A stretch of DNA of 64,000 nt, from the NCBI GenBank assembly GCA_035529635.1, contig DATKWJ010000018.1, positions 3,823 to 67,822 on the forward strand, read 5' to 3'. Made by a program: the position numbers and the translations under genes. This DNA is from Patescibacteria group bacterium. Its GTDB lineage: Bacteria > Patescibacteriota > Minisyncoccia > Minisyncoccales > RBG-13-42-11. The notes beneath the pieces are model-generated. The model ran no database searches, was not told where the DNA came from, and saw nothing but the letters and a program-made list of their open reading frames with translations. Shown here piece by piece: positions 1,779 to 53,800 of this stretch. Each line of letters opens with the position of its first letter. The first letter of the stretch is position 1.

Positions 1779-4700
1779 TTAACCCCCAGCCATACTAAAA
1801 TCTCTATACAGGGAGAATGCCTGATCAAAAACTAAATTTAAAACATTCTCTGTTTCTTCTGGCGCAAATTTATTACGCAACAATAACAATCTCACATCGG
1901 CTCTAATTCGGGATTTAATAATTTCATTATTAGTCCAATCAACCGTAATATCTCTTTTAATTACTCTGACTAATTCTTTGACTAAATCTTTTAGTTCTCC
2001 ATTTTTTAGTTCCGATTTTTTGGCCGTGGAAATAGCATCATAAAAAGCAACTTCCTCGTCGCTAAGACCTAAGCTCACACCGGCTTTCTCTGCTGATTTA
2101 ATTTCTCTAGCTAACTCAAGTAACCTTTCTATAACCTTAGTTGAGTTAATAATATTATTCTCGTATTCTTCAATAATCTGATCTAATAATTCGAAGAGGG
2201 ATCTATATCTTACCCCATTCTTTCTAATTCTGATTCTTAATTCGTCTTGTAATAGCTTCCTCAGAGTTTCAATCGCCAAATTCTTAAACTTCATATTCTT
2301 TACTTCTTCCAAAAATTTTTCATCAAAAATAGAAATATCCGGTTTAGTTTTATCTTTCATTGCGAAGATATCAATCACTCCTTCCGCAACGATACTTTTT
2401 GATACTAACTCTCTTAACGCAGACTCTATTTTTATATCAATTTCAGCTGCTCCAGCGATAACTGTTCTCTTAACAATCGCCTTTTTAACAGCTTGAAAGA
2501 ATGCTACATCGTTTCTGATTTTTATCGCTTCATGATTAGGCATTGCCAAAGCGAAGACTTTGAACAAAATTTCGCTTTCTTTCAAAAACCTATTTTTTCT
2601 TTCTCCATCCAGCATTCCGGTTTTTTCATCTGTAATAATTGAGTTTACTGCTTTTTGGAATAGTTGCGCTAAATTGATACTCTCCAGATTTTTCCAATTA
2701 GAATAATCGATCCCAACAAACATATCTTTCACTATGTCGTATTTTTCAAGCATCTTATTTATAATTTCCTGCAAAGGAATCAACGCTTCCTTACGAATAT
2801 CAGAACTATAAATACTTAATGCCTTTTTAAGATTGTCGGCAACACCAATATAATCAACTATCAATCCGCCCGGCTTATCTTTAAATATCCTGTTCACTCG
2901 GGCAATCGCTTGCATCAAAGTATGATTTTTTAAAGGTTTGTCTATATACATTGTATGAAGCGGCGGCACATCAAATCCAGTCAGCCACATATCGCAAACT
3001 ACTACCATTTTTAATGGATCGTCGGGATTTTTAAATTGTTTTTCTAATTCTTTATAATTTAACTCTTTTTGAATTCTTCCTTTAAAATCTTCCGGTTTTG
3101 AAATAACTACTGCTATTTTCGGCGCTTCTGGAATTTTTGAAATCAATTCATACATCTCAACAGCAATCCTTCGGCTCATTGTCACAACCATCCCCTTTCC
3201 CTCTAATCCGCGATTATTAAAATGATCAACGATGTCTTCTGCGACTTGCTTTAAACGTTGTGGGGATCCGACCGCCTGTTCTAATCTGGCCCATTTTCTT
3301 TTAACGCTTTCCTTTATATCAAATTCCTGTTCGGCCATTAAATCTTCAAATTCCTCATCAATAAAATCATTTGTTAAATGAAGCGGCACAAGTCTTCCTT
3401 CGTAATATATAGGAACCGTTGCTCCATCTTCAACCGCTTTGTTTATTTGATAGGCGCTAATATGTTCGCCAAATACTAACCGAGTATCGCGATTATGCAA
3501 ACTGATTGGCGTACCAGTAATACCCATAAATGAAGCATTAGGTAAAGCGACACGCACATTCCCAGCTAATTTTGCGTATTGTGAACGATGAGCTTCATCG
3601 GCGATAACAATGATATTTTCACGCTCGGAAAGTATTTCGTTTTCGGTTTCAAATTTCTGAATAGTCGAAAAAATCAGTTCGGCTCCTGCTGTTTTCAGTT
3701 TTTCATTTAAACCTTTTATGGTCTCAGCCTGCTTAGCTGTAGAATAACCGGTTCTTAAAAATGTTTTATATAATTGTCCGTCGAGGTCATTTCTATCTGT
3801 TAAAAATACAAAGGTCGGACTTTTAAGCTTTGTTAATTTCTTAACCTTATTCACATAAAAAACCATGGAAAGTGATTTCCCGCTTCCTTGCGTGTGCCAG
3901 AATACGCCGATTTTTTTATTTCCCTTTGGATCAGTCGCTCGCAAAGTTTCATTAATTGCTTTATTTACTCCAAAATACTGGTGATACAAGCATATCTTTT
4001 TAGTAAATTTGCTTATATCTTTTTCGCTATCGGCTTCAAAAACTATAAAATTTTGAATAATATCTAATAATCTTGTTTTATTAAACACCCCTTGTACTAA
4101 GATTTCTAATTCAGATACGCCTTCATTTTTTTCATCTTCGCTTTCAATCCCTTTCCAAGTAGAAAACCATTCCCAAGAAGAAGAAATCGTCCCGTGTTTT
4201 GCTTGCAATAAATCGCTAATGACTAATATCTGATTATATTTAAAAATATCTGGAATATCTTTTTTGTAATCCTGTAATTGGTAAAAAGCAGATCTAAGTG
4301 TTCCTGTTTCGGTTGTCGGACTCTTTGCTTCAAATACCGCAACCGGGATTCCGTTTATAAAGACTACCAAGTCTGGCCGGCGAACATTTTCAATGCCCTG
4401 GATCGCAAACTGATTTACAACCAGGAATTCATTATTCAATGGATTTTCAAAATCAAAAACCTTCGCGATTCTTCCTTTTGTTTCTCCTTTTTTGTCTTTT
4501 ACCTCAAACTTAACTCCTTCGGTCAATAATTTATAAGTTTCTTTATTCGCTATCTCTAAACTTGGGTGTTCAACGCCAATAATTTTTGAGACTGCATCGT
4601 CAATCGCCGAATCGGATAAATCTGGATTCAGTCTCCGTAAAGAACGTTTTAGCCGCGATATTAAAACAACATCACGGAATGAATTCCGCTCTTGTAAGCT

Positions 4701-4808
4701 TCCACCCGGCGCTAAATCCGGCCCAAACTCGTAATCATAACCAAGCTCTTTTAACCAACCTATGATCGGCTGTTCTGTTATTGAATTTTCGTTAAGATTT
4801 TTAGACAT
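1779..4808 (-). CDS. hsdR: type I restriction enzyme R subunit (HsdR)
   Basis: 1009 aa. Helicase motif I is WHTQGSGKSLSMVF and the DEAH box is IADEAHRSQ. The N-terminal region is nuclease-like. The gene sits in an operon with hsdM and hsdS. Confidence 0.93.
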   Translation of the reverse strand: MSKNLNENSITEQPIIGWLKELGYDYEFGPDLAPGGSLQERNSFRDVVLISRLKRSLRRLNPDLSDSAIDDAVSKIIGVEHPSLEIANKETYKLLTEGVKFEVKDKKGETKGRIAKVFDFENPLNNEFLVVNQFAIQGIENVRRPDLVVFINGIPVAVFEAKSPTTETGTLRSAFYQLQDYKKDIPDIFKYNQILVISDLLQAKHGTISSSWEWFSTWKGIESEDEKNEGVSELEILVQGVFNKTRLLDIIQNFIVFEADSEKDISKFTKKICLYHQYFGVNKAINETLRATDPKGNKKIGVFWHTQGSGKSLSMVFYVNKVKKLTKLKSPTFVFLTDRNDLDGQLYKTFLRTGYSTAKQAETIKGLNEKLKTAGAELIFSTIQKFETENEILSERENIIVIADEAHRSQYAKLAGNVRVALPNASFMGITGTPISLHNRDTRLVFGEHISAYQINKAVEDGATVPIYYEGRLVPLHLTNDFIDEEFEDLMAEQEFDIKESVKRKWARLEQAVGSPQRLKQVAEDIVDHFNNRGLEGKGMVVTMSRRIAVEMYELISKIPEAPKIAVVISKPEDFKGRIQKELNYKELEKQFKNPDDPLKMVVVCDMWLTGFDVPPLHTMYIDKPLKNHTLMQAIARVNRIFKDKPGGLIVDYIGVADNLKKALSIYSSDIRKEALIPLQEIINKMLEKYDIVKDMFVGIDYSNWKNLESINLAQLFQKAVNSIITDEKTGMLDGERKNRFLKESEILFKVFALAMPNHEAIKIRNDVAFFQAVKKAIVKRTVIAGAAEIDIKIESALRELVSKSIVAEGVIDIFAMKDKTKPDISIFDEKFLEEVKNMKFKNLAIETLRKLLQDELRIRIRKNGVRYRSLFELLDQIIEEYENNIINSTKVIERLLELAREIKSAEKAGVSLGLSDEEVAFYDAISTAKKSELKNGELKDLVKELVRVIKRDITVDWTNNEIIKSRIRADVRLLLLRNKFAPEETENVLNLVFDQAFSLYRDFSMAGG

Positions 4809-4810
4809 AG

Positions 4811-5173
4811 CTATTTTCTTAATTTATCAGAAATAACGATTACGGCATAAAATATTATTCCCAAAACAACAATGCCCAATCCCCATCCCAAAATTCCATT
4901 TGTAATTAGATTTATACCAATTCCCCCGCACACAATTGAAACAACAAATTTCAATATCTCATGAAAAACGAGCGTACTAGCCCTACTAGCCTGCACTGCA
5001 TTATTTTTGTCTGCCTCATGATATTTTGCACGATATATTTCAAGTTCATCTTGAGTACTCCCTAATGATTTCTCGAGTGTTTTAACCTTCTCAGACATCA
5101 ACTTAAAGGCGGCTGTTGTTTTTTGTTCGGCAGGCGTAAGTCCTCTTTTTATTTTTTTATTAAGATATGTCAT
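4811..5173 (-). CDS. small coiled-coil protein with C-terminal glycine-rich double TM hairpin, unknown function
   Basis: 120 aa. The N-terminal half is charged and helical (EKVKTLEKSLGSTQDELEIYRAKYHEADK). The C-terminal half is FVVSIVCGGIGINLITNGILGWGLGIVVLGIIFYAVIVI. Its ATG overlaps the upstream stop as ATGA (5170-5173), and it ends 2 nt before the hsdR start. Confidence 0.6.
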   Translation of the reverse strand: MTYLNKKIKRGLTPAEQKTTAAFKLMSEKVKTLEKSLGSTQDELEIYRAKYHEADKNNAVQASRASTLVFHEILKFVVSIVCGGIGINLITNGILGWGLGIVVLGIIFYAVIVISDKLRK

Positions 5174-5544
5174 TGTGAAAAAAAGAGGCTTATTGGATCT
5201 TTTTCAGACCACGAAAAAGATTTGAATGGTTTGAAAGGAACAAACTCAGTGAACGACCGAAATGGTTCGAATTCCACAAATCCTGGAAATGGTTTGAATT
5301 GTTTGAATGGAAAAAATGGCGCGGGGGTATCGCTTGGATTTTCTCCGAACCCAACACAATGTCCATCTCTATCTCTCATTACTCCGTTTTCAAACCAGCC
5401 AACATATTTTCCTAAATAATTAAAAAGGTTACCGTCCTTTATAAAGCCGATACTCTTTCCGGGGAAACTAACTATCCTACCGTTATCGAGTAACCGAAGA
5501 ATTGGCGCTCCGTACCTATTGTAAATTACATCGATTTCGTTCAT
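5170..5544 (-). CDS. 4-fold beta-flower-like protein with C-terminal Pro/Phe/Lys repeat tail, unknown function
   Basis: 124 aa. The N-terminal half has repeated G-x-hydrophobic beta-hairpin-like units (NRYGAPILRLLDNGRIVSFPGKSIGFIKDGNLFNYLGKYVGWFENGVMRDRDGHCVGF). From memory this resembles the family annotated as '4-fold beta flower protein'. The tail is PFFPFKQFKPFPGFVEFEPFRSFTEFVPFKPFKSFSW. There are ATGA overlaps with hsdS (5541-5544) and with the next gene. Confidence 0.5.
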   Translation of the reverse strand: MNEIDVIYNRYGAPILRLLDNGRIVSFPGKSIGFIKDGNLFNYLGKYVGWFENGVMRDRDGHCVGFGENPSDTPAPFFPFKQFKPFPGFVEFEPFRSFTEFVPFKPFKSFSWSEKDPISLFFSQ

Positions 5545-6824
5545 ATTTTTATTTCCCCTTTCATTAATTTTGGTAAAAACAAATCGCGAAGAGATGCTAA
5601 TTTTTGATTTTCCGAAGATAACTTGTTGACTCTATAAAATATAGGTTTTATTAAATCGAAAAAATTTGTTAATACTTTGTTAGATGGAAGAACAAATGAA
5701 TAATCACTTATAACGGATTGGCTCAGATGGGAAACGTTTGTCCCAGAAGCCGAACTAGCCATAAAATACGAAAAGTTTCTGCGTAACATTAAATAATAAA
5801 GAAATGTTTTTAGAACATCTTGCGTTTTAATGGAACAAACATCGAGTGAAATTAAAATCTTATCCCATCCTTTTATTTCGGGAACTCTCGCCGGATGTCC
5901 GATAACTTCACGGTTAGAAGTTAAATCAGTAAGTGCGACAACAACGTCACCGGATTCAACTAAATTAGAATCTTTATATTTTCCGTTAAAAAACTTAATT
6001 CCTTCGATTTTAAATCCACCACCCCTTACAAAATTAGACAAATTAATCATCGGAGTACCCCCATTATTCTCTCTTATTTCTTCGGAAGAATATGATAGGC
6101 CTTTATTAATTTTCGCCACATTACCGATTTTTTTTACTTCCCAGCCTTCCGGGATTTCCCCTAATTCAGAATCAACCATTTTTACTTTTTCATGGCCTGG
6201 AAATTTAAATTTAACAAACCACTCCTTAAAAATCGCCTGGGCCATTTGCTCCAGATTCTGATTAACCTTATTATTCAATTCAATCTTTTCGTCAAAAGCG
6301 GAAAGAATTTCGGCGATCCTTTTTTGTTCACCAACATCTTCAGGGGAGAAAATTTCTATTTGCCTTAATTCTGCTTGTCTTATTCCCTCAGCAGCTGTAC
6401 CGCTCAAGCGTCGCATTAATTCATGCCTACCCTCTGGACTTAATAAATAATAATAAAGAAATAGCGAATTAAGTTTCTTTGAGTTTGTTCTCAGCGCAAA
6501 AAGACGCTGGCTTAAACAAAGTTCTATTTTATTTTTTATATAGAAAAGTTCACCCAAAGGCGCTTCGGAAGTTAATAAAAGATCTCCTACTTCTAGTTTG
6601 TTTGTCATCCATTTTTCATAAAGATCTCTATTTACATATCTAATATCATTTTCATTAACAATCCGACCATTTTTTATATTTTTTGCCGAAATAGCGGGAA
6701 CACCACTAATTGACCAACCACCACCCATCTTTTTAGGTGTTTTACCTCTATGATCGATTATCAAATCAAGTAGACCTTCCAACTTCACTTTCCGCCAGTT
6801 TTTATTTTGCAATTTCTGAACCAT
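5541..6824 (-). CDS. hsdS: type I restriction-modification specificity subunit (HsdS)
   Basis: 427 aa. It has the two-TRD layout with conserved central and C-terminal helical spacers (…QNLEQMAQAIFKEWFVKF… and …NQKLASLRDLFLPKLMKGEI). Its start overlaps the hsdM stop (TAATG at 6822-6826). Confidence 0.85.
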   Translation of the reverse strand: MVQKLQNKNWRKVKLEGLLDLIIDHRGKTPKKMGGGWSISGVPAISAKNIKNGRIVNENDIRYVNRDLYEKWMTNKLEVGDLLLTSEAPLGELFYIKNKIELCLSQRLFALRTNSKKLNSLFLYYYLLSPEGRHELMRRLSGTAAEGIRQAELRQIEIFSPEDVGEQKRIAEILSAFDEKIELNNKVNQNLEQMAQAIFKEWFVKFKFPGHEKVKMVDSELGEIPEGWEVKKIGNVAKINKGLSYSSEEIRENNGGTPMINLSNFVRGGGFKIEGIKFFNGKYKDSNLVESGDVVVALTDLTSNREVIGHPARVPEIKGWDKILISLDVCSIKTQDVLKTFLYYLMLRRNFSYFMASSASGTNVSHLSQSVISDYSFVLPSNKVLTNFFDLIKPIFYRVNKLSSENQKLASLRDLFLPKLMKGEIKI

Positions 6825-8614
6825 TATAATAACTTTTCTAAATTATTCTCAATCTCTTTTTCTAATTTTCTGCTTTCTCTAAAATATTGTTTTAATTCGC
6901 CTGTTAATTTTTCCATCTTTTCTTCAAATGGTACGCCATCTTCTTCCTCTTCAGTTACTCCTACATATCTGCCGGGGTTTAAAACATAACCATTTTTCGT
7001 AATTTCTTCTTTTTTGACTGACTTGCAAAAACCAGCGATATCTTTATATTCGCTCCCATGGTTTTCTCCCCTCCAAGCTCGCACAGTACCGGCAATTTTT
7101 TGAATATTTTCATCGTTGAAAATAACTTGTTTCCGAGAAATGGGTTCAAAAGTTTCGCGAGCGTCAATAAAAAGAGCCTCTCCGATTCTTTTTCTAAATC
7201 TTCCATTATTTTTATTCTTGCTAGCAAACCATAAAGAAACTGGGAGCGAAACGTTATAAAAAAGCTTTGGCGGACAAGCTATAATCACATCTATTAAATC
7301 ATCCTCAATAATTTTTTTTCTAATTTCGCCTTCCCTGCCCCCAGTTGCCAAAGCACCATTCGCCATTACAAAACCTGCCATTCCATTCGGCGCTAAATGA
7401 TGAATAAAGTGCTGAATCCACATAAAATTGGCGTTTCCCGAAGGTGGAATCCCGTATTTTATCCTCGGATCCTTATCGCTTAATCTCCCCGGCTCCCATT
7501 CAGCATTGAAGGGTGGATTAGCTATAACAAAATCTGCGCGGAGATCAGGAAATTTGTCATCATAATAAGAATTACCAATTTCTATCTGCCCAAAAATTCC
7601 ACGAATTGCTAGGTTCATTTTACAGAGCCGCAAGGTTGTAAAGTTACTTTCTTGTCCGAAGAAAGAAATTTTAGAAGAATCTTTCTTGTGTATTCTTAAG
7701 AATTCGCTTGATTGTACAAACATTCCTCCGCTACCACAAGCAGGGTCAAATACCCGGGAATTTTCGTACGGTTCCAAAACTTCAACAATTAATCTAACAA
7801 TAGAGCGCGGAGTATAAAATTCTCCACCGCGCTTTCCTTCAGCGGAAGCAAACTGGCCTAAAAAATATTCATAAACCCTACCCAAAAGATCTTTTTCTTT
7901 TTCGATGTCGTGGTCAAATGTAATTTTTGAAAATATATTGACTAATTCTCCAAGGATATGGCTTTCAAGTTTTGTTTGAGTATAAATTTTGGGGAGCACT
8001 CCTTTTAATTGTTTTGGATTTTCATTTTCAATTGCTTCCATCGCCTCATCAATGTATTTTCCAATATCACTATGCATGGCGCGGTCTCGCAAATATTCCC
8101 AGCGGGCATTTTTGGGAATGTAAAACACGCCCTCTCTTTTATACTGATCTTTATCGTCAATTATAACTTTCCTGTTTTTTTCATTAGGAACATAATAATC
8201 CTTATTTTTAGGATCGCTTACCCATTGCTCTAATTTCAACCGTCTTTGATAGAAAGAATCTGAAACGTATTTTAAAAATAAAAGCCCTAAAATAATATGT
8301 TTGTATTCGGAAACATCAATATTGCCACGCAATCTATCTGCGGCTTTCCAAAGCTCTTTTTCAAAATCTAAATCTTTGCCTGCTTTTTCTCCAATTTTTG
8401 TGGCCTTCTCGACTATTTCTTTTTGTTGACTTGCTATTCGTTCTTTAATATCAGCGGGAAGGGAAGCTTTCTCTACTACAAAACTTTTGCCGAATTCGGC
8501 GATTTTAATTCTGCCCTCTTTAGCCATTTTGTTTATTTGTTTAAGGGCGGCGACTCTGCTTATACCAAGTAATTTTGCAAATTCGCTTGTTGTTATGTAT
8601 TTTTCTTTTTCCAT
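6824..8614 (-). CDS. hsdM: type I R-M N6-adenine DNA methyltransferase (HsdM) with fused N-terminal excisionase-type HTH
   Basis: AdoMet motif VFDPACGSGGMF and catalytic motif VIANPPFNAEW. The N-terminus ITTSEFAKLLGISRVAALKQINKMAKEGRIKIAEFGKSF looks like an HTH_17/excisionase-type HTH. The track ORF starts at 8698. I prefer the ATG at 8614 (M29) because the 28 extra codons cover the predicted promoter/operator palindromes. Confidence 0.9.
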   Translation of the reverse strand: MEKEKYITTSEFAKLLGISRVAALKQINKMAKEGRIKIAEFGKSFVVEKASLPADIKERIASQQKEIVEKATKIGEKAGKDLDFEKELWKAADRLRGNIDVSEYKHIILGLLFLKYVSDSFYQRRLKLEQWVSDPKNKDYYVPNEKNRKVIIDDKDQYKREGVFYIPKNARWEYLRDRAMHSDIGKYIDEAMEAIENENPKQLKGVLPKIYTQTKLESHILGELVNIFSKITFDHDIEKEKDLLGRVYEYFLGQFASAEGKRGGEFYTPRSIVRLIVEVLEPYENSRVFDPACGSGGMFVQSSEFLRIHKKDSSKISFFGQESNFTTLRLCKMNLAIRGIFGQIEIGNSYYDDKFPDLRADFVIANPPFNAEWEPGRLSDKDPRIKYGIPPSGNANFMWIQHFIHHLAPNGMAGFVMANGALATGGREGEIRKKIIEDDLIDVIIACPPKLFYNVSLPVSLWFASKNKNNGRFRKRIGEALFIDARETFEPISRKQVIFNDENIQKIAGTVRAWRGENHGSEYKDIAGFCKSVKKEEITKNGYVLNPGRYVGVTEEEEDGVPFEEKMEKLTGELKQYFRESRKLEKEIENNLEKLL

Positions 8615-8648
8615 ATTATAAATTTTACTATAGCATTGATCTCTTTTA

Positions 8649-8693
8649 AGGTTATCATATGATAACCTAGTTGTCAAGTTTTTTGCTTGACAA
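8649..8693 (-). promoter_or_regulatory. putative hsd operon promoter with palindromic operator
   Basis: On the minus strand: TTGACA (8677-8672), a 17-nt spacer, then TAACCT (8654-8649). A perfect 18-bp palindrome GGTTATCATATGATAACC (8650-8667) fills the spacer and -10 region. A second inverted repeat, TTGTCAAG-N7-CTTGACAA (8671-8693), overlaps the -35. Confidence 0.45.
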
Positions 8694-8711
8694 ATCATCT
8701 ATAGTTAAGGC

Positions 8712-8741
8712 TTGACACCGTCTCAGGAAGCCCGATATAAT
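8712..8741 (+). promoter_or_regulatory. near-consensus sigma70-type promoter, divergent from the hsd operon
   Basis: TTGACA (8712-8717), an 18-nt spacer, then TATAAT (8736-8741). Confidence 0.6.
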
Positions 8742-8747
8742 AAAGTT

Positions 8748-9000
8748 GTAAAATTGAATACGAATTAGATTGTTCATCTTTGAACTATTCCGGAAAAATA
8801 AACACTTGCTCATTCCCTGATACCGATTAGCTGATAATCCAAGCGGATTAAAAGCCCCGGGAAGGGGTTGAGAAAAGCTATTTTTCCCAGGTTGGAACCG
8901 AGAAGCAATCAATTCAGCATTTTCGCTAGCCTTATGCAAGCGCTGATTTGATTACCTCTCGGTTTTTAAATCAGCAGCTGTATAAACAGGCTGCTGTTTT
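8748..9000 (+). ncRNA. ~250-nt structured leader RNA / candidate cis-regulatory attenuator upstream of the ParB-methyltransferase gene
   Basis: It lies between the promoter (8712-8741) and the ATG at 9033 and has no credible ORF. Local hairpins: GTTCA-TCTT-TGAAC (8772-8785), GATTA-GCTGA-TAATC (8825-8839) and CCCC-GGGAA-GGGG (8855-8867). An 8-bp stem GCTGATTT (8942-8949)/AAATCAGC (8968-8975) shares 8972-8975 with the terminator stem. I recognise no known riboswitch class. Confidence 0.4.
8972..9000 (+). terminator. intrinsic terminator-like hairpin inside the leader
   Basis: CAGCAGC (8972-8978) pairs with GCTGCTG (8990-8996) and is followed by TTTT (8997-9000). It lies 33 nt upstream of the next start codon. 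Confidence 0.5.
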
Positions 9001-9032
9001 AGTTATGTGTTTAATCATTTAGCTTTAAATCT

Positions 9033-10379
9033 ATGGCAAAAATACAAAATAAAAAATTCGCTCACGAAAATATAAAAGTTCAGTACGTGCCTATTAACCA
9101 ATTAAAACCGGCAAGCTATAACCCCAGAAAATGGGATAGTGCAGCAACTGCCCAATTAAGGGACAGTATTCGGCGTTTTGGATTGGTCGATCCATTTATC
9201 GTTAATTCGGATCCCAATAGAAGGAATATTATCATCGGCGGTCATTTCCGCTGGACAGTAACAAAAAAGCTGGGAATAAAAACGGTTCCGATTGTTTACG
9301 TTAATATTCCAGATATTGAGAAAGAAAAAGAATTGAATATCAGGTTGAATAAAAATGTCGGTGCATTTGATTGGGATCTTCTGGCTGCTTTTGGAGAAAA
9401 CTTTTTGGCTGATATCGGATTTAATAGCGAAGAATTAGACCAAGTATTCCAAATTGATGAAACCCCAGAAATGTTTGACCTGGTAAAAGAGCTTGCCAAG
9501 CTTAACATCCAAAAAATACAAATCCAGAAAGGAAACATCTGGCGATTAGGAAATCATCGAATGATGTGCGGCGACTCAACGATCGAAAAAGATGTTTTGA
9601 AATTAATGGGCGGAGAAAAGGCAGATATGTGCCTCACGGACCCTCCGTATATATTGAATTATCTGCAAGGCAAGAAAAAACACGGGAAAGCAACGGAAGG
9701 CTTCGGATATAAAAGAGACAGGCGTTATTTAGAAACGGATGTTTTACCCCCTAATTTCACTGAAAAATGGATGGCGAATATAAGTAAAGTGCAAAAGGAA
9801 GATTTCAGCATTATTTGCTACGAGAATTGGAAAAACATTCGGACTATATGGGGTGAAATGGAAAAATACTGGAAAGTTAAGAATATGATTGTCTGGAGGT
9901 TGCCAAATCGTGTACAGGGATTTGCGGCTAAATACCGATTTTTTAACAAGCACGATATAGCCATGGTCGGACAATCCGGAAATATTGAGTTTAACGAAAA
10001 ACCAGAAAAAGAATTACTACAGAATGAATATGAGACAGCCCTTTATGCCATAAGCGGAAAACCGCACTGGGAGGGATATGAGAAAGGAAAGAAAATCTGC
10101 CCGACGGATTTTATTGAATTTCATGCAGCAGATGAAAAAAGTTCGGGACAAGGAATAATATTCGGTACAAAGCCAATAGAAATTCTTATCCCCTACATAA
10201 AGGTCTTAACCAAAAGAAATGATTTAATTATAGAACCGTTTGGAGGATCAGGCAGCACATTGATTGCCGCACAGAAAATGAAGAGACGATGCTACTTAAT
10301 GGAGAAGTCGCCTGTATACTGCGAGGTGATAAAGCATCGCTGGGAGAAATTAACAAGCCTAAAAGCTAAAAAACTATGA
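9033..10379 (+). CDS. ParB-like nuclease domain fused to N6/N4 DNA methyltransferase
   Basis: 448 aa. The N-terminus resembles a ParB/sulfiredoxin-like domain (VPINQLKPASYNPRKW…IIGGHFRW). The MTase motif IV is CLTDPPYILNY and motif I is IIEPFGGSGSTLIAA. Confidence 0.85.
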   Translation: MAKIQNKKFAHENIKVQYVPINQLKPASYNPRKWDSAATAQLRDSIRRFGLVDPFIVNSDPNRRNIIIGGHFRWTVTKKLGIKTVPIVYVNIPDIEKEKELNIRLNKNVGAFDWDLLAAFGENFLADIGFNSEELDQVFQIDETPEMFDLVKELAKLNIQKIQIQKGNIWRLGNHRMMCGDSTIEKDVLKLMGGEKADMCLTDPPYILNYLQGKKKHGKATEGFGYKRDRRYLETDVLPPNFTEKWMANISKVQKEDFSIICYENWKNIRTIWGEMEKYWKVKNMIVWRLPNRVQGFAAKYRFFNKHDIAMVGQSGNIEFNEKPEKELLQNEYETALYAISGKPHWEGYEKGKKICPTDFIEFHAADEKSSGQGIIFGTKPIEILIPYIKVLTKRNDLIIEPFGGSGSTLIAAQKMKRRCYLMEKSPVYCEVIKHRWEKLTSLKAKKL

Positions 10380-10780
10380 AAACTGAAAAAGAAAAACAAT
10401 TACTGATCGAGCAACTAAAGAAAACGCCGATCGCCCAGATCGCCTGCGAGAGATCCGGCATCAGCAGAGCCAGTTATTATCGGTTAAGAAAGGAGGATGG
10501 AGAATTTAAAAAAATGACGGATGACGCAATTATTGAGGGCGAAACGCTTATTACGGACATGAGTGAGTCACAATTGATTTCTTTAATCCGGGATAAAAAT
10601 TTTCCAGCCATACAATTATGGCTGAAGTCGCACCATCCGAAGTATAGCCAAAAAGTCGAATTGAACGGCCACATAACATATTCGGACGAGGAACTTACGC
10701 CGGAGCAGGCGAACGTTGTAAAACAAGCACTGCGGCTCGCCTCGTTTGATAAAAAGCATGGAAAAGAAAAAAAGAAATAA
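10376..10780 (+). CDS. small HTH protein, possible terminase small subunit
   Basis: 134 aa. The HTH is IAQIACERSGISRASYYRLRKE. It sits immediately upstream of TerL, and its start overlaps the MTase stop (ATGA at 10376-10379). Confidence 0.45.
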   Translation: MKTEKEKQLLIEQLKKTPIAQIACERSGISRASYYRLRKEDGEFKKMTDDAIIEGETLITDMSESQLISLIRDKNFPAIQLWLKSHHPKYSQKVELNGHITYSDEELTPEQANVVKQALRLASFDKKHGKEKKK

Positions 10781-10784
10781 AAAG

Positions 10785-12281
10785 ATGAATTTTGAGGAAA
10801 TCATTGAAGCAATGCTCAAGGATAGAAGGATCAGATTAAATATCGTAAAGAGAAGCCATAAATTCTTCTTCTATTTCTATTTTACCCATTACACCGAGTT
10901 CGAGATTGCTCCTTTCCACGAAGAAATGTTCCATATCACCCAAGATACGAAAATTCGCAGTGCAGTCATTGTCGCTTTTCGGGGATCCAGCAAATCAACC
11001 ATCTTTTCCCTCTCTTTTCCTCTGTGGGCAATTCTGGGAGAGCAAAGAATTAAATTTGTTTTAATTTTAAGCCAGACCCAACAGAAAGCCCAGATGCTAC
11101 TCCAGCAGATTAAATATGAGCTAGAAACAAATGGTTTTCTGAAAAGGGATTTAGGACCATTTCAAGAAGAACGCAACCAATGGAACATGGTTTCGCTCTA
11201 TCTGCCGCGCTACAATGCCAAAATTACCATTGCCTCTACCGAACAAAGCGTGCGCGGTCTAAGACATAAACAATATCGCCCGCAATTAATCATCTGCGAC
11301 GATTTGGAAGATATGGATTCCGTCAAAACAATAGAAGGACGAGAAAAAGTGTATAACTGGTTCATGGGAGAAGTACTCCCTGCCGGAGCCAAACAAACAA
11401 GGCTTATGATTGTCGGTAGCTTGCTCCATGGAGATTCTTTTATCAGACGATTACAGAAAAATATTGAGAGTACGAAAATGAATAAGGCCGTTTATCGGGA
11501 ATACCCTATTATAGATGAAAAAGACAATCCCACTTGGCCAGGGAAATTCCCGGATCAAAAAGCCATTGATGAAGAAAAGTTAAAAGGCATTGATGGGCCT
11601 ACCTGGCACCGCGAGTATCTCCTTAAAGACGTCCCGGATGAAAATCAAAGAATCCTTGAGGAATGGTTCAAAGAATATCCCATGATGCCAAATTCAACAG
11701 GAGACGATTATGTCGGGACGTTTATCGGCATAGATCCGGCGGGATCGGACAACGAAAACGCAGACTGTACTGCCATGGTGGCAGCGAGTATTTTTGGCCG
11801 CGGAGAAGAAATGAAAATTTATATCCACCCGAATCCCATAAACAAGAGGTTGCGATTTAACGAAATCAGAGACCAGGCCATACTACTTTCAAAAACACTC
11901 GGAATAAGATACCCCGCAACAATAATTGTGGAGGACGTCGGTATTCAGAAATGGCTTACCCAAGAGTTAAAGGACGCGGGCATACCGGTAAAAGAATTCA
12001 AAGTAGCTGGGATGAACAAAGGAGAAAGGCTTACTATTGCCGCCTCTCGAGTGCAGGCTGGAAAAGTATTTTTTCCGAAAGATGGAGTAAAGGATTTACG
12101 ATTGCAACTTCTTAATTTCGGCAGAGAAAAACACGATGATTTAGTTGATGCGTTTACCATGCTTATTCTGGAAATAATGAAAGACAACGGAGGAGCATGC
12201 TCTCCGCTCCCCGACCAAGGGAATACTGACAATGAAAGATACAAACCACTTTTCGCCAGCTTAATGAATAGAGAGTTTTAG
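10785..12281 (+). CDS. phage terminase large subunit (TerL)-like
   Basis: Walker A-like VAFRGSSKST and Walker B LIICDDLED. The C-terminal RNaseH-like nuclease signature is GIDPAGS…IIVEDVG…KHDDLVDAF. The track ORF starts at a TTG at 10746. The ATG at 10785 lies 4 nt after the upstream stop and gives MNFEEII…. Confidence 0.75.
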   Translation: MNFEEIIEAMLKDRRIRLNIVKRSHKFFFYFYFTHYTEFEIAPFHEEMFHITQDTKIRSAVIVAFRGSSKSTIFSLSFPLWAILGEQRIKFVLILSQTQQKAQMLLQQIKYELETNGFLKRDLGPFQEERNQWNMVSLYLPRYNAKITIASTEQSVRGLRHKQYRPQLIICDDLEDMDSVKTIEGREKVYNWFMGEVLPAGAKQTRLMIVGSLLHGDSFIRRLQKNIESTKMNKAVYREYPIIDEKDNPTWPGKFPDQKAIDEEKLKGIDGPTWHREYLLKDVPDENQRILEEWFKEYPMMPNSTGDDYVGTFIGIDPAGSDNENADCTAMVAASIFGRGEEMKIYIHPNPINKRLRFNEIRDQAILLSKTLGIRYPATIIVEDVGIQKWLTQELKDAGIPVKEFKVAGMNKGERLTIAASRVQAGKVFFPKDGVKDLRLQLLNFGREKHDDLVDAFTMLILEIMKDNGGACSPLPDQGNTDNERYKPLFASLMNREF

Positions 12282-12346
12282 GTCTTAAAGTTACCAACAG
12301 TTTACCAACTAGGGGGGCTGGACTCCCTAAGACCGTTGCGACATCC

Positions 12347-12374
12347 TTGTCCCTAGAAAGGTCGAAAATATAAT
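12347..12374 (+). promoter_or_regulatory. possible promoter for the recombinase gene
   Basis: TTGTCC (12347-12352), a 16-nt spacer, then TATAAT (12369-12374), 17 nt upstream of the ATG at 12392. Confidence 0.3.
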
Positions 12375-12391
12375 TAAAAATATTTAAGACT

Positions 12392-13747
12392 ATGGGACAA
12401 ATTGCAACAATAAAAATAACGGATCAGCAGTCTCCTCTCGCAGTTGCGTCTGTCCGCTACTGCCTTTATGCAAGGAAAAGCACGGAGTCAGACGAGCTCC
12501 AAGCTTTATCGATTGATTCGCAAGTCAAAGAAATGCTGGCTATGGCTAAAAAAGAAAAGCTGGAAGTCTCTGAGATAAGACGAGAAAGCCACTCGGCAAA
12601 AGATTCCAGCCAAAGGCCGGTCTTCAACCAGATAATCGAAGATATAAAAAGCGGCCTGTTCAGCGGAATTCTAACTTGGGCGCCCGACAGGCTGAGCAGA
12701 AACGCCGGCGATTTGGGGTCTTTGGTTGATTTAATGGATCAGGGACGGTTAATAGAAATAAGAACTTATGGCCAAAGGTTCACGAATAATCCGAATGAAA
12801 AGTTTTTGCTGATGATTTTGTGTAGCCAGGCAAAGCTGGAAAATGACCATAAGGGTGAGAATGTGAAGCGAGGACTGAGAGCCAAATGCGAAATGGGATG
12901 GCGACCCGGCGCAGCCCCTCTCGGATACATCCACGATAAATTTGCGCTAAAAGGGCAAAAGAGAGTGCTTACAGATCCTAAAAGAGCTCCTATCATGAAA
13001 CAAATGTTCGAAAAGGTAGCTTACGAAGGAGCAAGCGGAAGGGATATTTTAGACTGGCTTAACAATGAAATGAATTTCACAACGAGAACCGGGAAAAGAA
13101 TCGTTCTCAGCGGAATTTATCGGATGCTCAAAGACACCTTCTATTACGGAGAATTCGAATACCCCGTAGGAAGCAGTAATTGGTACAAGGGAGGTTATGA
13201 CCCGATTATCACAAAAGAACTGTTCATGGCGGCTCAGGCGGAGCTTACTGCTCCCCCGCGACGCCATCCTGGGACTAACGACTTTGAGTTTACCCGTCTT
13301 CTATATTGCGGCTCGTGCGGATCGGGAATCTGCGCCGAAGAAAAATTCAAGCATCAGAAAAACGGAAACACCCACCGTTACGTTTATTACCACTGCACAA
13401 AAGGTAAAGACAGGAGTTGCAAAGAAAAAGCAATTCGGGAAGAGGAACTGACCGAACAGCTTCTAAGGGTCATAGACAAGATTGATATTGATGAAATCGG
13501 AACCAGGGGAAAAATTCTGAGGGAAGTCCAAAGATACAGAAAATTTAGCTACCAGGTTCTAAACCAGGAATCAAACCTCGGCAATAGATCAATTGATATT
13601 GATATCCGTAATTACGCGAAATACATTCTTACCGAAGGATCAAAGGACGAAAAAAGAGAATTATTATCATGTCTGAGAAGCCGTCTGGAAATAAAAGATA
13701 AAACTGTCTATCTGAAAATACAAGGCAGGGAAGATCTGGAAAAATAG
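12392..13747 (+). CDS. large serine recombinase (integrase-type)
   Basis: 451 aa. The resolvase-type N-terminus is YCLYARKSTESDELQALSIDSQ. It has a recombinase domain and a zinc ribbon (CGSCGSGICAEEK…YYHCTKGKDRSC), plus a C-terminal coiled coil. Confidence 0.9.
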   Translation: MGQIATIKITDQQSPLAVASVRYCLYARKSTESDELQALSIDSQVKEMLAMAKKEKLEVSEIRRESHSAKDSSQRPVFNQIIEDIKSGLFSGILTWAPDRLSRNAGDLGSLVDLMDQGRLIEIRTYGQRFTNNPNEKFLLMILCSQAKLENDHKGENVKRGLRAKCEMGWRPGAAPLGYIHDKFALKGQKRVLTDPKRAPIMKQMFEKVAYEGASGRDILDWLNNEMNFTTRTGKRIVLSGIYRMLKDTFYYGEFEYPVGSSNWYKGGYDPIITKELFMAAQAELTAPPRRHPGTNDFEFTRLLYCGSCGSGICAEEKFKHQKNGNTHRYVYYHCTKGKDRSCKEKAIREEELTEQLLRVIDKIDIDEIGTRGKILREVQRYRKFSYQVLNQESNLGNRSIDIDIRNYAKYILTEGSKDEKRELLSCLRSRLEIKDKTVYLKIQGREDLEK

Positions 13748-13758
13748 AGAAGAATAAC

Positions 13759-13782
13759 CAAAAGCCCCGATAAGGGCTTTTG
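13759..13782. terminator. hairpin between convergent genes (bidirectional terminator candidate)
   Basis: CAAAAGCCC (13759-13767) pairs with GGGCTTTTG (13774-13782) around a 6-nt loop. Confidence 0.5.
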
Positions 13783-13827
13783 GGTTTGCTAATATAAATA
13801 AAACCAATCTAGATAAAATTTAAACAA

Positions 13828-14751
13828 CTAGAATAATTTGGGAGGATTCTTTAAAGTTATTGGCCTAGAACCACCCCTTCCTATCCCTTCAAAAATAAAA
13901 AAACTACCCTCTTCTCCACTTTTCCATAATTTACAATCTTCAATTGGGTCTATACTAACAAAAGAAAAAACGGGTTTTATTTGCACTGATGAAATTTTAA
14001 ATATGGAACGCAGAAAGTCATCGCCTCTAACATTTTGTGGTATGTCTGCTAATTTTAACCCTGGGAATACTAGAAAAATATGATTTAGACTTGTTATTTC
14101 CTTTAAGATAATCTCTGATTCTTTTTTAAGATCAAAGATTCCACCTTGAGATATATAACAAACAAGTATTGTGTTTGGTTCGTATTGCTTTCTTGATAAT
14201 TTTGTCCTTATTGTATCAAGTAAATCACCATTTATATGTTCAACCACCTCAACCTCTCGAACATGCATTTCCTGGATACCATCCCTTTGAACAGTAGTTC
14301 CTATCACGCCGTCAGGTGGATCGTCTTTGGGCTTATAAATCCACCACTTGGTTTTATCTTGTTTGGCCATAGCCATTGCAACAATTGATGTCGCATATAT
14401 TTCCTTGGCTCTTTTCAAATCCCTGTGGCTCCAAACATAGCTATGAGTTTTATTTAATTTATCTTTTAGTTTCCTGTATTCATTCCAAAATCCATTTATT
14501 CCATAGCATGGATTAAACCAAATAGTCCCTTTTTCCTTTAAATATAATAAATTAGGTGGGTACATATAAATATTTATCCCACCCGTATTATGACAAAAAA
14601 CCGCCTTTTGGGCGACTTTTTGCTTTCTGAAAATTGATACTGAGTTCGAGACCCATCTCCAGTCGTGACGGGGATGGGAATTTAGAACCTGTCCCATCGC
14701 CGTTTTGTGCTTAAAATCTGGACGGGAACGGGTCGGATTCACAAGAATCAT
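13828..14751 (-). CDS. hypothetical protein (orphan, no family recognised)
   Basis: 307-aa ORF. The annotated start is 4 nt from the tRNA-Asn 3' end, so the true start is probably internal (M19 MGQVLN… or M63 MYPPNL…). The segment PPDGVIG…x20…REVEVVEH is vaguely PD-(D/E)xK-like, but it lacks the Lys. Confidence 0.5.
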   Translation of the reverse strand: MILVNPTRSRPDFKHKTAMGQVLNSHPRHDWRWVSNSVSIFRKQKVAQKAVFCHNTGGINIYMYPPNLLYLKEKGTIWFNPCYGINGFWNEYRKLKDKLNKTHSYVWSHRDLKRAKEIYATSIVAMAMAKQDKTKWWIYKPKDDPPDGVIGTTVQRDGIQEMHVREVEVVEHINGDLLDTIRTKLSRKQYEPNTILVCYISQGGIFDLKKESEIILKEITSLNHIFLVFPGLKLADIPQNVRGDDFLRSIFKISSVQIKPVFSFVSIDPIEDCKLWKSGEEGSFFIFEGIGRGGSRPITLKNPPKLF

Positions 14752-14754
14752 CTG

Positions 14755-14826
14755 CTCCGCGGGTAGGATTCGAACCTACAACCTAGTGCTTAACAGGCAC
14801 CCGCGCTACCATTGCGCCACCGCGGA
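14755..14826 (-). tRNA. tRNA-Asn (anticodon GTT)
   Basis: The minus strand reads TCCGCGGTGGCGCAATGGTAGCGCGGGTGCCTGTTAAGCACTAGGTTGTAGGTTCGAATCCTACCCGCGGAG. The cloverleaf was checked by hand: acceptor TCCGCGG/CCGCGGA, anticodon loop CTGTTAA, T-arm GTAGG-TTCGAAT-CCTAC. Confidence 0.93.
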
Positions 14827-50839: not shown

Positions 50840-53800
50840 CTATGGTTTGAGTTCTGGTTCAGGTTCCAGTTCGGGTTCAGGCGCTTGTTCTAAATTACAA
50901 ACATCATTATACCAATAGAGATTTGCTCCTTCGCATAATTCCTTGGTATTGCACAAATCTAAATGTTCTTTATCGCATTGTGGCTCTGGTTTTGAATTAC
51001 AAACATTGTTTTCGCTATCCCAAACACCGCCGGCGGTTTGGCAATCCAATTCAGCTGAGCAGAGATTTAAATGAGTTACATCGCAATCTGGCGATGTTTC
51101 TCCTTCTGAAGTACCACCATCATCACTTGAACCATCGCTACCTCCGTTGCCGCCCCTGCCAGTTCCAAATATTGCCTGAAACTCGGCTTCGGTCACGCAA
51201 ACGCTTCCTACACAAAGCTGGCGGGTTTTTAAGGTATCCACTTCCAACATGCCATATTCATTGACCATCAGGCCGAACGAAGCAAGTCCCTGTTGTAATT
51301 TAATATTAACAATTTTGCCATCGTCGTTTTGTACAATATTCAAATCATTTCCCTGCCAGTGAGGATTAATAAAAATCATTATCTTGCCGTCTTTGTTATA
51401 ACCATCGTAGTTTTCTAAGGCAATTCCAATTACTCTGCCGGCTTTCGTCGCTTTCATCGCCACACCGGGTTGAACGGAAGAAGTCAAAGCATCGCCAATA
51501 ACAATCGGCCCATTTTCAGTTGAAACTTTAACCGCTACCCTCCCGGCTAAAGCCACTAAGCGAGAATTTTCCTTATTTAACCCTCCTCCCAAAATAAACC
51601 CAGGGCTTTCAGAAACTACTCCAATTAATTTTGAATCATAAGCAACTGAAGATTTTTCAATAATAAGATTTTCAGTTACCGAAACTAAATCTCCTCCTTC
51701 TGGACAATTTTGATTAGTTTGACATTGAGAATCAATCGGATATCGCTCGGCAATATCAAGAGAGCCACTTTGAGTTACTGTGCCAGTGAATATTGCGCTA
51801 CCATGAACACCAAGAGCAACAGTAGAAGTAGCTCCAGCATCAATAGTTAGGAAATAAGCCGGTGTCGTCGTCCCGATGCCGACGTTGCCTCCAATATAAA
51901 GCCCTAAATCATACTCATTAATTTCATCCCCAACAGAGCCAATAATATACATCTTTGTCCCATCTGGCTTGAAGAATAAACCCTCAGGAGTTGTTTCCTC
52001 AGTAGTTACAGAAAACAATTGGTTGAATACTGCTGTAGAAATATCCCAAGGAGTTGACAAGCTATACTCATTAACTTCATCTACTTGCTGACCAATAATA
52101 TACATCTTTGTCCCGTCTGGTTTGAAGAATAAACCATTAGGGGTTGTTTCCTCAGTAGTTACAGAAAATAATTGATTAAATATTGCTGAACTTACATTCC
52201 AAGCAGTTGACAAGCTATACTCATTAACTTCAACCCCATTCTGACCAATAACATACATCTTTGTCCCGTCTGGCTTGAAAAACAAACCTGAGGGAGTTCC
52301 TTCCTCAGTAGTTACAGAAAACAATTGAAGCCAAACTGATGATGATATATCCCAAGGAATTGATAAATCATACTCATTAACTTCATCCACCTGAGGGCCA
52401 ATAATATACATCTTTGTTCCATCTGGCTTGAAGAACAAACCATAAGGGAGTGTTTCCTCAGTAGTTACATTAAATAATTGACTATAAACTGATGATGATG
52501 TATCCCAAGCAGTTGATAAGTTATATTCATAAACTGAATCTCCATCAGAGCCAATAATATACATCTTTGTCCCATCTGGTTTAAAGAACAAATCTCTAGA
52601 GACCGCTTCTTCAGTAATTACAGACTTTAATTGCTTGAAAGAAGCTGTTCCCACATGCCAGCCAAATCCGTCAGGCGTGCCTGCAACTGTTTGTGTAGAG
52701 CCGTCTGAGAACACAAATGAATCAGTTCCTCGTATGCTTCCAGTAACGTCAAGTCTGTATAAAGGCGTCTTCGTCCCGATGCCGACATTGCCGTCAATAA
52801 TGTAAGAATCAGCAACTGACCTAAAGATATAAGCCTGGTCGGTAAAAGCAACTTGAATTTTACCATCGCTAGACATAGCAACTCTCTGAAGACCTAAGGC
52901 AGTACCCTTTTGCACCCAGGTTACTCCATAATCAGTGGAACTATAGGTAAAACCAGCATCAACCACGGCAGTTTGTATCTTACCACTACTAGACATGGCG
53001 ATGCCTTTCCAGTTCCTGGAAACATCACTGGTCCTTTGTGTCCAAGTATTCCCATAATCAGTAGAACCCCAAATATAGCCATATTGACAACCCGTCTCAC
53101 TTGCAAGAATGGCGGTCTGTATTTTGCCATCACTAGACATAGCAACAGCCTTCAGACGCCCAGGGGTACCGAGATCCTTCTGCATCCAAGTAACTCCATA
53201 ATCAGCCGAAATCCAGATGGGATTCCCACCAGCAGGACAATCGCCATAAACGACAGCAGTCTGAATTCTGCCGTCGCTAGACATAGCAACCGTGAGGAAG
53301 TTCTTTTTAGTACTAGTTCTTTGTGTCCAGGTATTTCCATGGTCAGTAGATCCCCAAATTAAACCTGTGCCGTCTGAACCAATAACGGCGGTCTGAATTC
53401 TACCGTCGCTGGATATAGCAACACTATACCATTTCTGGACACTAGCCTTCGGCGCCCAAGTATTTCCATAATTAGTAGAGACATAGATATAACCGTCATT
53501 GTCAACAGCAGTTTGAATCTTACCATCGCTGGACATAGCAACATGCCTCCAACCCCTGACAGCGTCCTTTTGTGTCCAGGTACCCCCATAATCAGTGGAA
53601 ACGTAGATAAAACCATCATGGACGACAGCAGTTTGAATCATGCCGTCGCTAGACACAGTAATACCCTTCCAATCTCTGGGGGCGTCGCTAGTTTTTTGTA
53701 CCCAGTTAGTAGCATAATTAGTCAAGCCCCACTGACTCTCCCTCAGACCGACTGAGCCGAAATATGCCCCGCCTTCCAACTGTGATAGTTGCATCTGGTC

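Follow-up and report, generated by a model that had tools for sequence, protein, structure and literature searches.

The only described phage satellites that carry terL are the phage-inducible chromosomal islands of the capsid-forming type (cf-PICIs), chromosomal elements of about 14 kb that bring their own terS and terL and need a helper phage for the rest of the particle. Here we analyse a 64-kb stretch of a Patescibacteria metagenome-assembled genome (contig DATKWJ010000018.1; hereafter the window) that holds an integrated island with a large terminase gene of its own. The core of this island consists of four co-oriented genes, which encode a fusion of a ParB_N domain with an N6/N4 DNA methyltransferase (ParB-MTase), a small helix-turn-helix (HTH) protein in the position of a small terminase (TerS), a large terminase (TerL) and a large serine recombinase (LSR). 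That these genes belong to a mobile element is strongly supported, and we lean slightly towards the view that they are the conserved backbone of a family of integrative Patescibacteria islands with a phage-satellite lifestyle.

The islands differ from each of the described systems that they resemble. Besides a tyrosine integrase and a primase-replicase, the cf-PICIs have genes for capsid, portal, protease and head-tail connector proteins. None of these is present here, and the hosts of cf-PICIs are Proteobacteria and Firmicutes rather than bacteria of the candidate phyla radiation (CPR). The classical PICIs and Staphylococcus aureus pathogenicity islands (SaPIs), together with the PICI-like tycheposons, are likewise integrated islands of 10-15 kb without virion genes, with accessory or defence cargo and, in some, LexA-type control; they use a small terminase to redirect the packaging of the helper. 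In contrast with classical PICIs, PICI-like tycheposons and the marine virion-encapsidated integrative mobile elements (VEIMEs), whose own contribution is terS or a capsid gene, with TerL supplied by the helper, and which mostly possess tyrosine integrases and replication modules, the islands have TerL in their core, an LSR as a rule and no core replication module. Tycheposons share with the islands integration at tRNA genes, tandem arrays with partial tRNA remnants, and cargo. Their hallmark, however, is a tyrosine recombinase (910 of 937, with an LSR in 27 of 937), accompanied by a replication module and cyanobacterial hosts, whereas the islands have an LSR and reside in Patescibacteria. Temperate tailed phages with serine integrases display the same order of ParB-MTase, small HTH gene and TerL, with translational coupling; in the phages whose TerLs form the sister clade of the island enzymes TerL is followed by genes for portal, protease and major capsid protein, which is never the case in the islands. 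Finally, the PICI-like elements (PLEs) of Vibrio cholerae are also LSR-integrated satellites that manipulate the packaging motor of the helper. PLEs have their own replication initiator, are narrow in host and helper range (V. cholerae and ICP1) and are not known to carry TerL or to target tRNA ends.

In a 2025 preprint the existence of satellites for viruses of CPR bacteria was stated as unknown. No earlier description of the island family was found in the searchable literature, and mention elsewhere is possible. The islands are phage-satellite-like integrative elements, possibly the first for CPR bacteria. The stronger proposal, that they constitute the first CPR phage-satellite family and follow a new strategy in which an integrase, a TerS/TerL holoenzyme and a methyltransferase are combined without capsid or replication genes, is put forward tentatively, with slightly more doubt than belief.

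Results

The four-gene block is the conserved core of a widespread family

The preliminary description of this DNA had reported a co-oriented block of four genes with coupled junctions. Inspection at base level agrees: the ParB-MTase and HTH genes overlap by an ATGA (10376-10379), and the stop codon of the HTH gene (TAA, 10778-10780) is followed 4 nt later by the ATG of TerL (10785), for which an alternative upstream start (TTG at 10746) is possible. The ParB-MTase matches Pfam ParB_N (1.6e-12) and N6_N4_Mtase (1e-20) as well as phrog_498 (2e-81). TerL matches phrog_38 'terminase large subunit' at 2e-73 and has no Pfam match at E<=0.01. The LSR comprises Resolvase (PF00239), Recombinase (PF07508) and Zn_ribbon_recom (PF13408) domains, matches the phrog_95 integrase (1.3e-66) and retains the YARKS catalytic motif, which is kept across the family. 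When the four core proteins were submitted to PADLOC only generic methyltransferase matches were returned, with no defence-system assignment for TerL, the HTH protein or the LSR.

A search with TerL detected 2592 homologues, and a scan of species representatives (one genome per species) identified a TerL relative in at least 523 genomes, the best 80 of which were nearly all Patescibacteria. Gene surveys covered the 80 top-scoring loci per collection, with simple six-frame calling of open reading frames (ORFs); the related loci and contigs used for comparison are numbered L001 upwards. Homologues at 69%, 63% and 59% identity lie in the same triplet of ParB-MTase, a protein of ~131 aa and TerL, with an LSR adjacent or nearby, defence genes as neighbours and no virion genes. 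The order and strand of ParB-MTase, HTH and TerL are constant in the best 80 loci wherever the flank suffices, the ParB-MTase being directly upstream of HTH-TerL in 82 of 85 related loci, and a co-oriented LSR follows downstream in 44 of the 52 loci whose flank reaches 9 kb or more. Where a downstream LSR was present (62 loci), the recombinase is adjacent (<200 nt) in 27, 0.2-3 kb away in 20 and farther in 15.

Clustering of 1346 neighbouring ORFs yielded just four core families: TerL (85 loci), ParB-MTase (82), HTH (67) and LSR (64). The next commonest neighbour is a LexA/CI-like S24 repressor, divergent from the ParB-MTase gene, in 23 of 85 loci, and no primase or replicase was found among the recurrent neighbour families. 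Thus, with an LSR in place of a tyrosine integrase, no recurrent primase-replicase and an S24 repressor in only this minority of loci, the family falls outside the definition of a PICI, which calls for a tyrosine integrase, a regulator of AlpA/Stl type and a primase-replicase module alongside terS and/or genes that redirect capsid size. Any gene found between TerL and the LSR must certainly belong to the element; genes in this interval include restriction-modification (R-M) systems (types I, II and IIG), helicases, superinfection-exclusion (Sie) proteins, MADS/PglX-like genes, regulators and transporters. Gene content upstream of the ParB-MTase is similar. The search of related genomes proposed in the preliminary description has returned a block whose order recurs while its tRNA loci and cargo differ, and has allowed the ends and attachment site of the element to be defined.

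The gene survey yielded several further observations. ParB and methyltransferase are fused in ~40 of the loci L012-L091, as they are in the window, and elsewhere are encoded by two consecutive ORFs. Two full-length tandem TerL genes lie between HTH and LSR in some family members (L036, L041, L061, L068, L102-L104, L107, L108 and L145), many of which are labelled Peribacteria or Peregrinibacteria-like. Genes of a diversity-generating retroelement (an RVT_1 reverse transcriptase and bAvd) adjoin the module in L006 (4703-6107) and L010 (13874-15254). Some loci bear titles from outside the CPR (L016, L018, L022, L023, L026-L028, L030, L038, L040, L062 and L074), naming Gammaproteobacteria, Bacteriovorax, Bdellovibrionales, Methanoregula and Nitrospirota; the TerLs of L026, L016 and L030 are 77-83% identical to that of a Levyibacteriota bin (L042). 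Either these are mislabelled bins or the family extends beyond Patescibacteria.

The block lies in a 15,640-bp island at the 3' end of a tRNA-Asn gene

The element exceeds the span flagged in the preliminary description (9033-13747). It extends from position 14753 of the window down to position 1 and a further 887 bp beyond the left edge, 15,640 bp in all, and its G+C content is ~0.35 across 1-10 kb compared with ~0.44 in host DNA. The type I R-M genes, which had been described as neighbouring cargo, are indeed cargo, but they lie inside the element and not next to it. A search for attachment repeats within the window returned nothing convincing, and the ends emerged instead from the comparison of contigs. 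Exact-protein look-ups recovered the identical island, in reverse orientation to the window, in contigs from several samples. Two of these, L001 and L002, show no difference as far as locus position 15695 and part at the distal junction. Past this point L002 continues with a terminator-like hairpin, CAACAAAAATCGCCAATCAGGCGGTTTTT, and a host HhH-GPD gene, whereas L001 continues with a second copy of the ~155-nt element end (88% identity) and then unrelated genes, which together make up a second, tandem island. In two further samples the contigs stop at this junction, as expected if strains differ there.

From these junctions the empty site was predicted beforehand, with the distal flank (CAACAAAAATCGCC... 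terminator) following directly on the 3' end of the tRNA, and the predicted site was present, uninterrupted, in metagenome contigs L175 and L176 (…CCTACCCGCGGAGC/CAACAAAAATCGCCAATCAGGCGGTTTTTT, the slash marking the junction). The empty attB can be written …CCCGCGGAGC/CAACAAAAATCGCC…, and the reconstructed attP …GTGTGGGGAGC/AGATGATTCTTGTGAA…, or alternatively …GAACTCGTGTGGGGAGC/AGATGATTCTTGTGAATCC…. The attL and attR junctions have just ...GGAGC in common, without long direct repeats, and crossover falls within this sequence at the encoded CCA (GGAG-CCA in the empty site versus GGAG-CAG in the occupied one). As the empty site is reconstructed exactly, the island represents a precise 15,640-bp insertion at the 3' end of tRNA-Asn.

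Related loci show the same geometry. Wherever a tRNA was found beyond the LSR (22 of 22 loci), the nearest one lies on the other strand and turns its 3' end towards the element, at distances of 134-8360 nt; 13 of these tRNAs are Ser, five Gln and one each Asp, Gly, Lys and Glu. The nearest neighbour of an LSR uses the same tRNA with the same anticodon in 9 of 23 cases, a number that 0 of 2000 label permutations reached. The window and L008, the locus with the closest LSR relative, both use tRNA-Asn, and their element ends match over the first 33 nt alone, which is approximately the size of a serine-integrase half-site. These patterns suggest that the LSR is responsible for both integration and excision at the 3' ends of tRNAs and that LSR sub-lineages may use different tRNAs.

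The attachment region displays some further peculiarities. The second island of L001 (15696-22669), which uses the same tRNA-Asn, encodes among others an HD-domain protein, DUF4145 and the product of a 246-aa gene, with no visible terminase/LSR module, and at L001:16620-16960 there is a partial third copy of the repeat with several tRNA-3'-like fragments (GGTTCGAATCC…). A 15-nt motif, CGACCCGTTCCCGTC, occurs at window 14721-14735 (minus strand) and L002:15616-15630, and hence once on each arm of the reconstructed attP, at ~18 and 65 nt from the point of crossover; the L001 repeat copies have it too. An accessory factor could bind there, although serine integrases do not usually need one. In the relative with the empty site (L176:2119-2700 and L175:2597-3209) tRNA-Asn is split, its 3' 39 nt, which begin in the anticodon loop, lying ~535 nt from the 5' part; the intervening sequence matches the Rfam group I intron family (RF00028, 36.5 bits, E 1e-6) at a level below the gathering score, and the tRNA-Asn of this organism probably contains an intron.

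The island TerLs form a separate lineage under purifying selection

Among cultured phages the best TerL identity was 27%, and this search provided no named candidate for a helper. In IMG/VR the nearer relatives (at least ~39% identity) are accompanied by the HTH gene and usually by an LSR. The more distant ones (31-43%) lack both and are followed by genes for portal, protease/scaffold and major capsid protein; these are true phages, with portals matching phrog_2662 down to 1e-120 and a major capsid protein matching phrog_10 at 6e-90, and they too have a ParB-MTase upstream of TerL. The island-type arrangement, with HTH, usually an LSR and no portal, was displayed by ~55 of the 80 'viral' IMG/VR contigs retrieved with TerL (L092-L148), which carry the same triplet order as the genomic loci. 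Such islands are therefore being catalogued as viral genomes.

The preliminary description had proposed that a phylogeny against phage TerLs and the dN/dS of terL would be informative. When 167 TerLs were placed in a tree, all 140 copies linked to HTH grouped in one clade, which has no portal-linked member, and the 26 portal-linked copies grouped in another. Median identity within the island clade is 48%, and the portal-less arrangement is kept down to ~30-45% TerL identity. The TerL of the window holds the motifs FRGSSKST, LIICDDLED, GIDPAG, VED and HDDLVDA, from which the preliminary description had considered it functional. The wider alignment is consistent with that proposal: Walker A K70 and T72, Walker B D172 and D173 and the nuclease residues D317, E383, D451, D452 and D455 are invariant in 130 of 130 island TerLs, and 129 of them keep E175. 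Purifying selection is indicated by median dN/dS values of 0.07 for TerL, 0.13 for the HTH gene and 0.10 for the LSR, and low values persist in the least saturated pairs (for example, ω 0.04 at dS 0.27). TerL distances correlate with those of the LSR (rho 0.28) and of the HTH protein (rho 0.39), and 0 of 200 permutations gave correlations as high. These data point to a single, old lineage whose four genes have not been separated. We infer that the island TerL descends from a tailed-phage lineage in which TerL precedes portal and HK97-type capsid genes.

Virion genes are absent from the island

When portal, protease and capsid proteins of the related true phages were used as queries there were 0 matches across the whole 64-kb window and 0 in 91 genome and metagenome loci; the same queries gave 26-27 matches among the viral contigs, exactly those without HTH and LSR. 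Virion genes were thus found after the sister-clade TerLs, so the method detects them when they are present. The earlier statement that the window has no portal, capsid or tail gene is upheld. Its ten largest other ORFs are housekeeping genes or orphan, the rest of the window encoding RNA polymerase β/β′, FtsK, RNase J, DNA ligase, sigma-70, DnaG and others, and the other large ORFs at ~14.8-28.7 kb are annotated host genes on a contig from another sample. The delimited 15.64-kb island contains no morphogenesis or lysis genes, nor decayed remains of them, and has no room for virion genes. Likewise, no head, tail or connector family is listed among the 25 most frequent neighbour families, and a weak portal match in L138 (E 4e-4, 159-aa ORF) was dismissed as noise. 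Among the housekeeping genes there is also a 2464-aa ORF (50840-58234, minus strand) with no Pfam match at E<=1e-5.

The small HTH protein is a putative TerS

By sequence the HTH protein is only weakly TerS-like (phrog_4044, 8e-7, covering the HTH region only). Of its 553 detected homologues many carry PF13022, and some are named phBC6A51-family HTH. When a profile was built from 140 island copies, it gave weak matches to the ORF immediately preceding TerL in the nearest true phages (3e-4 in L135 and L136, 7e-6 in L158). The AlphaFold2 model (pLDDT 79, >85 over residues 1-90) has as its best PDB folds the small terminase gp1 of Sf6 (probability 0.80), phBC6A51 2ao9 and the NV1 small terminase, and in BFVD, a collection of predicted viral structures, the highest ranks are taken by homeodomain proteins of the phBC6A51 type together with annotated small terminases, the latter with probability ~1 and E from 5e-4. 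The protein also has the position of a TerS, immediately upstream of terL, and the expected coupling. On the basis of position, coupling, weak homology and fold rank, a TerS role appears moderately supported.

Discussion

The data presented here show an element that encodes a terminase without portal, capsid, tail or lysis genes, and because of this satellite behaviour is the most likely account of it. The packaging mechanism that follows is in our view the best explanation, one on which we are evenly poised. ParB-MTase, the TerS-like HTH protein and TerL would be expressed from one operon as a complete and active DNA-packaging enzyme, in the window copy perhaps from a perfect σ70-type promoter at 8712-8741. 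The trigger would be a helper phage of the sister TerL clade that infects the cell or is induced in it, whereupon the TerS-like protein may recognise the DNA of the element, and TerL would dock on the portal of the helper and fill helper procapsids with island DNA. The fused methyltransferase may pre-methylate this DNA against restriction in the next host, and in about one quarter of the elements the LexA/CI-like repressor would tie expression to SOS or phage signals. The outcome would be that defence cargo spreads between hosts while the helper phage pays the cost. Of the satellite-like mobile element suggested in the preliminary description, mobility is thus borne out by precise ends, an empty site and varied tRNA loci and cargo, whereas the hijacking of capsids stands as a model only.

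Several points weigh against this account. Packaging, excision and the helper phage are all things that we infer. There is no replication module core to the family, and the concatemeric substrate that packaging would use is consequently left unexplained. A terminal-overlap test on the contigs of ~176 loci disclosed no circular or excised form, and no recombination directionality factor (RDF) was identified. The empty site is that of a related organism (78% nucleotide identity in the sigma-70 region), in which similarity to the distal flank is confined to the 53-nt terminator region. The TerL tree was built by neighbour-joining with midpoint rooting, many dS values are saturated, and dN/dS was run on pre-filtered pairs. 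Some homologues of the HTH protein are named AlpA-like, and its model had no PDB fold match at E<=0.001 (E>=0.5). The PHROGs and Pfam summaries are limited to the 25 commonest families, so that single loci may hold rare virion genes.

It could be argued that TerS, TerL and ParB-MTase are an interference or defence module that mainly sabotages an infecting phage instead of moving the island, which could occur by occupying portals, cutting concatemers or causing mis-packaging, and that an LSR island carries this module as cargo, much as it does the neighbouring R-M systems. Defence genes abound in the islands, published satellites hamper the packaging of their helpers, the TerL nuclease is intact, and in 8 of 52 loci the triplet has no LSR within ~10 kb downstream. 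It should be emphasized, however, that the order, orientation and position of the triplet relative to the LSR and the tRNA end are fixed, that it co-diverges with the LSR, and that it is the sole invariant part of islands in which the defence genes vary. Interference and self-transfer are, moreover, compatible, and satellites do both. An equally unlikely proposal is that the terminase acts on island or chromosomal DNA independently of a helper, for example with unlinked capsids in the manner of a gene transfer agent, by in situ packaging of the flanking chromosome resembling lateral transduction, or through export linked to vesicles or competence. Such a role would fit the lack of a core replication module or RDF and the very wide distribution of the family within one phylum, and tycheposons, the nearest analogues in streamlined genomes, have been proposed to move in vesicles as well as capsids. 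However, neither the 64-kb window nor any of the 20-kb loci contains a homologue of capsid or portal proteins, and the block resides on a strain-variable island, not at a fixed chromosomal locus. Terminases are known to act on portal-containing procapsids only. We consider both of these proposals, which partly overlap the satellite mechanism and may yet hold, improbable to a similar degree.

A further possible origin of the gene order would be a temperate phage that has lost everything from portal to lysis genes and is now decaying, since a single deletion between terL and int would leave precisely this arrangement, and the related true phages share the ParB-MTase upstream of TerL. It is very difficult to reconcile such a sharply truncated prophage, which the preliminary description had listed among its possibilities, with 140 copies in one TerL clade at a median of 48% identity, or with cargo and tRNA targets that differ between loci. 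No surveyed locus runs on into virion genes, and the delimited island could not accommodate them. Monophyly, invariant catalytic residues, low dN/dS (0.04-0.12) and co-divergence therefore rule out a decaying remnant; we regard this origin as very improbable. A domesticated TerL/recombinase module of the host, the other possibility then raised, is also unlikely because the block sits on a presence/absence-polymorphic island beside its own integrase. The observations on which the preliminary description had asked for its reading to be judged point in the same direction: among the loci surveyed none continues as a prophage, the island TerLs show no inactivating changes and the block is found at variable locations.

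CPR bacteria, or Patescibacteria, make up a large share of bacterial diversity, and have tiny genomes and few recognised routes of gene exchange. If the satellite interpretation is correct, a conserved and actively maintained backbone of integrase plus terminase, bringing R-M and other defence genes into tRNA sites, would rank as a major agent of both horizontal transfer and defence against phages in these organisms, and would embody a new satellite logic in which the whole packaging motor is brought along and the shell alone is stolen. In practical terms, the family provides a large natural set of serine integrases with defined tRNA-end targets, and the HTH-linked TerL clade is a marker that can keep virus-detection pipelines from miscalling islands as prophages.

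Coordinates and further features of the island

Table 1. Features of the island and its integration site, in window coordinates
Feature	Position	Strand	Size	Remarks
ParB-MTase (ParB_N / N6-N4 DNA methyltransferase fusion), core gene 1	9033-10379	+	448 aa	
phBC6A51-type HTH protein in small-terminase position, core gene 2	10376-10780	+	134 aa	
TerL (ATPase and nuclease), core gene 3	10785-12281	+	498 aa	Size from ATG
LSR, core gene 4	12392-13747	+	451 aa	
Sigma-70 consensus promoter-like site, TTGACA-18-TATAAT	8712-8741	+		12/12 match; sole one in 8600-13900
Promoter-like site just upstream of LSR gene	12347-12374	+		10/12 consensus match
G+C-rich terminator-like hairpin between convergent LSR and 245-aa genes	13758-13783			11-bp stem, minus-strand T-tract
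Cargo protein with membrane-spanning N-terminus	1-1709, runs past left edge	-	598 aa	Translation; gene calls in L001-L004; no Pfam match
Type I restriction enzyme HsdR (cargo)	1779-4808	-		NCBIfam TIGR00348 hsdR 5.7e-185
Cargo protein	4811-5173	-	120 aa	No family match
4-fold beta-flower protein (cargo)	5170-5544	-	124 aa	Pfam PF21784 Bflower 4.3e-25
Type I specificity subunit HsdS (cargo)	5541-6824	-		Pfam Methylase_S 1e-31
Type I methyltransferase HsdM (cargo)	6824-8698	-		Pfam N6_Mtase 2.9e-106, HsdM_N 1.4e-26
Orphan ORF (cargo) between LSR and att junction	13828-14565	-	245 aa	Gene calls
Element end (P' side of attL), non-coding, terminator-like hairpin at its end	14600-14753	-	~155 nt	
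tRNA-Asn(GUU), integration target	14754-14826	-		ARAGORN; Rfam 72.4 bits

The consensus promoter-like site lies ~290 nt upstream of the ParB-MTase gene and is probably the promoter of the ParB-MTase/HTH/TerL operon. The leader between the two is not conserved in L006, L008 or L010; for this reason, and because the plus-strand hairpins failed a terminator scan, the idea that the leader acts in antitermination was dropped. The LSR is the sole recombinase in the island, and the 3' end of the tRNA-Asn points toward the four-gene block. An Rfam scan of the island and the ~155-nt repeat found the tRNA alone and no other family; the RNA fold of the element end has a z-score of -2.8.

The 245-aa orphan ORF has no family match and no homologue in the other loci compared; a mechanical, 307-aa version of it reaches 14751, across the non-coding repeat. 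The island also holds a 203-aa ORF. In public gene calls HsdM is 596 aa long, with its start at 8614. The type I R-M operon is interrupted between hsdS and hsdR by the genes for the 120-aa protein and the beta-flower protein, with stop and start codons overlapping.

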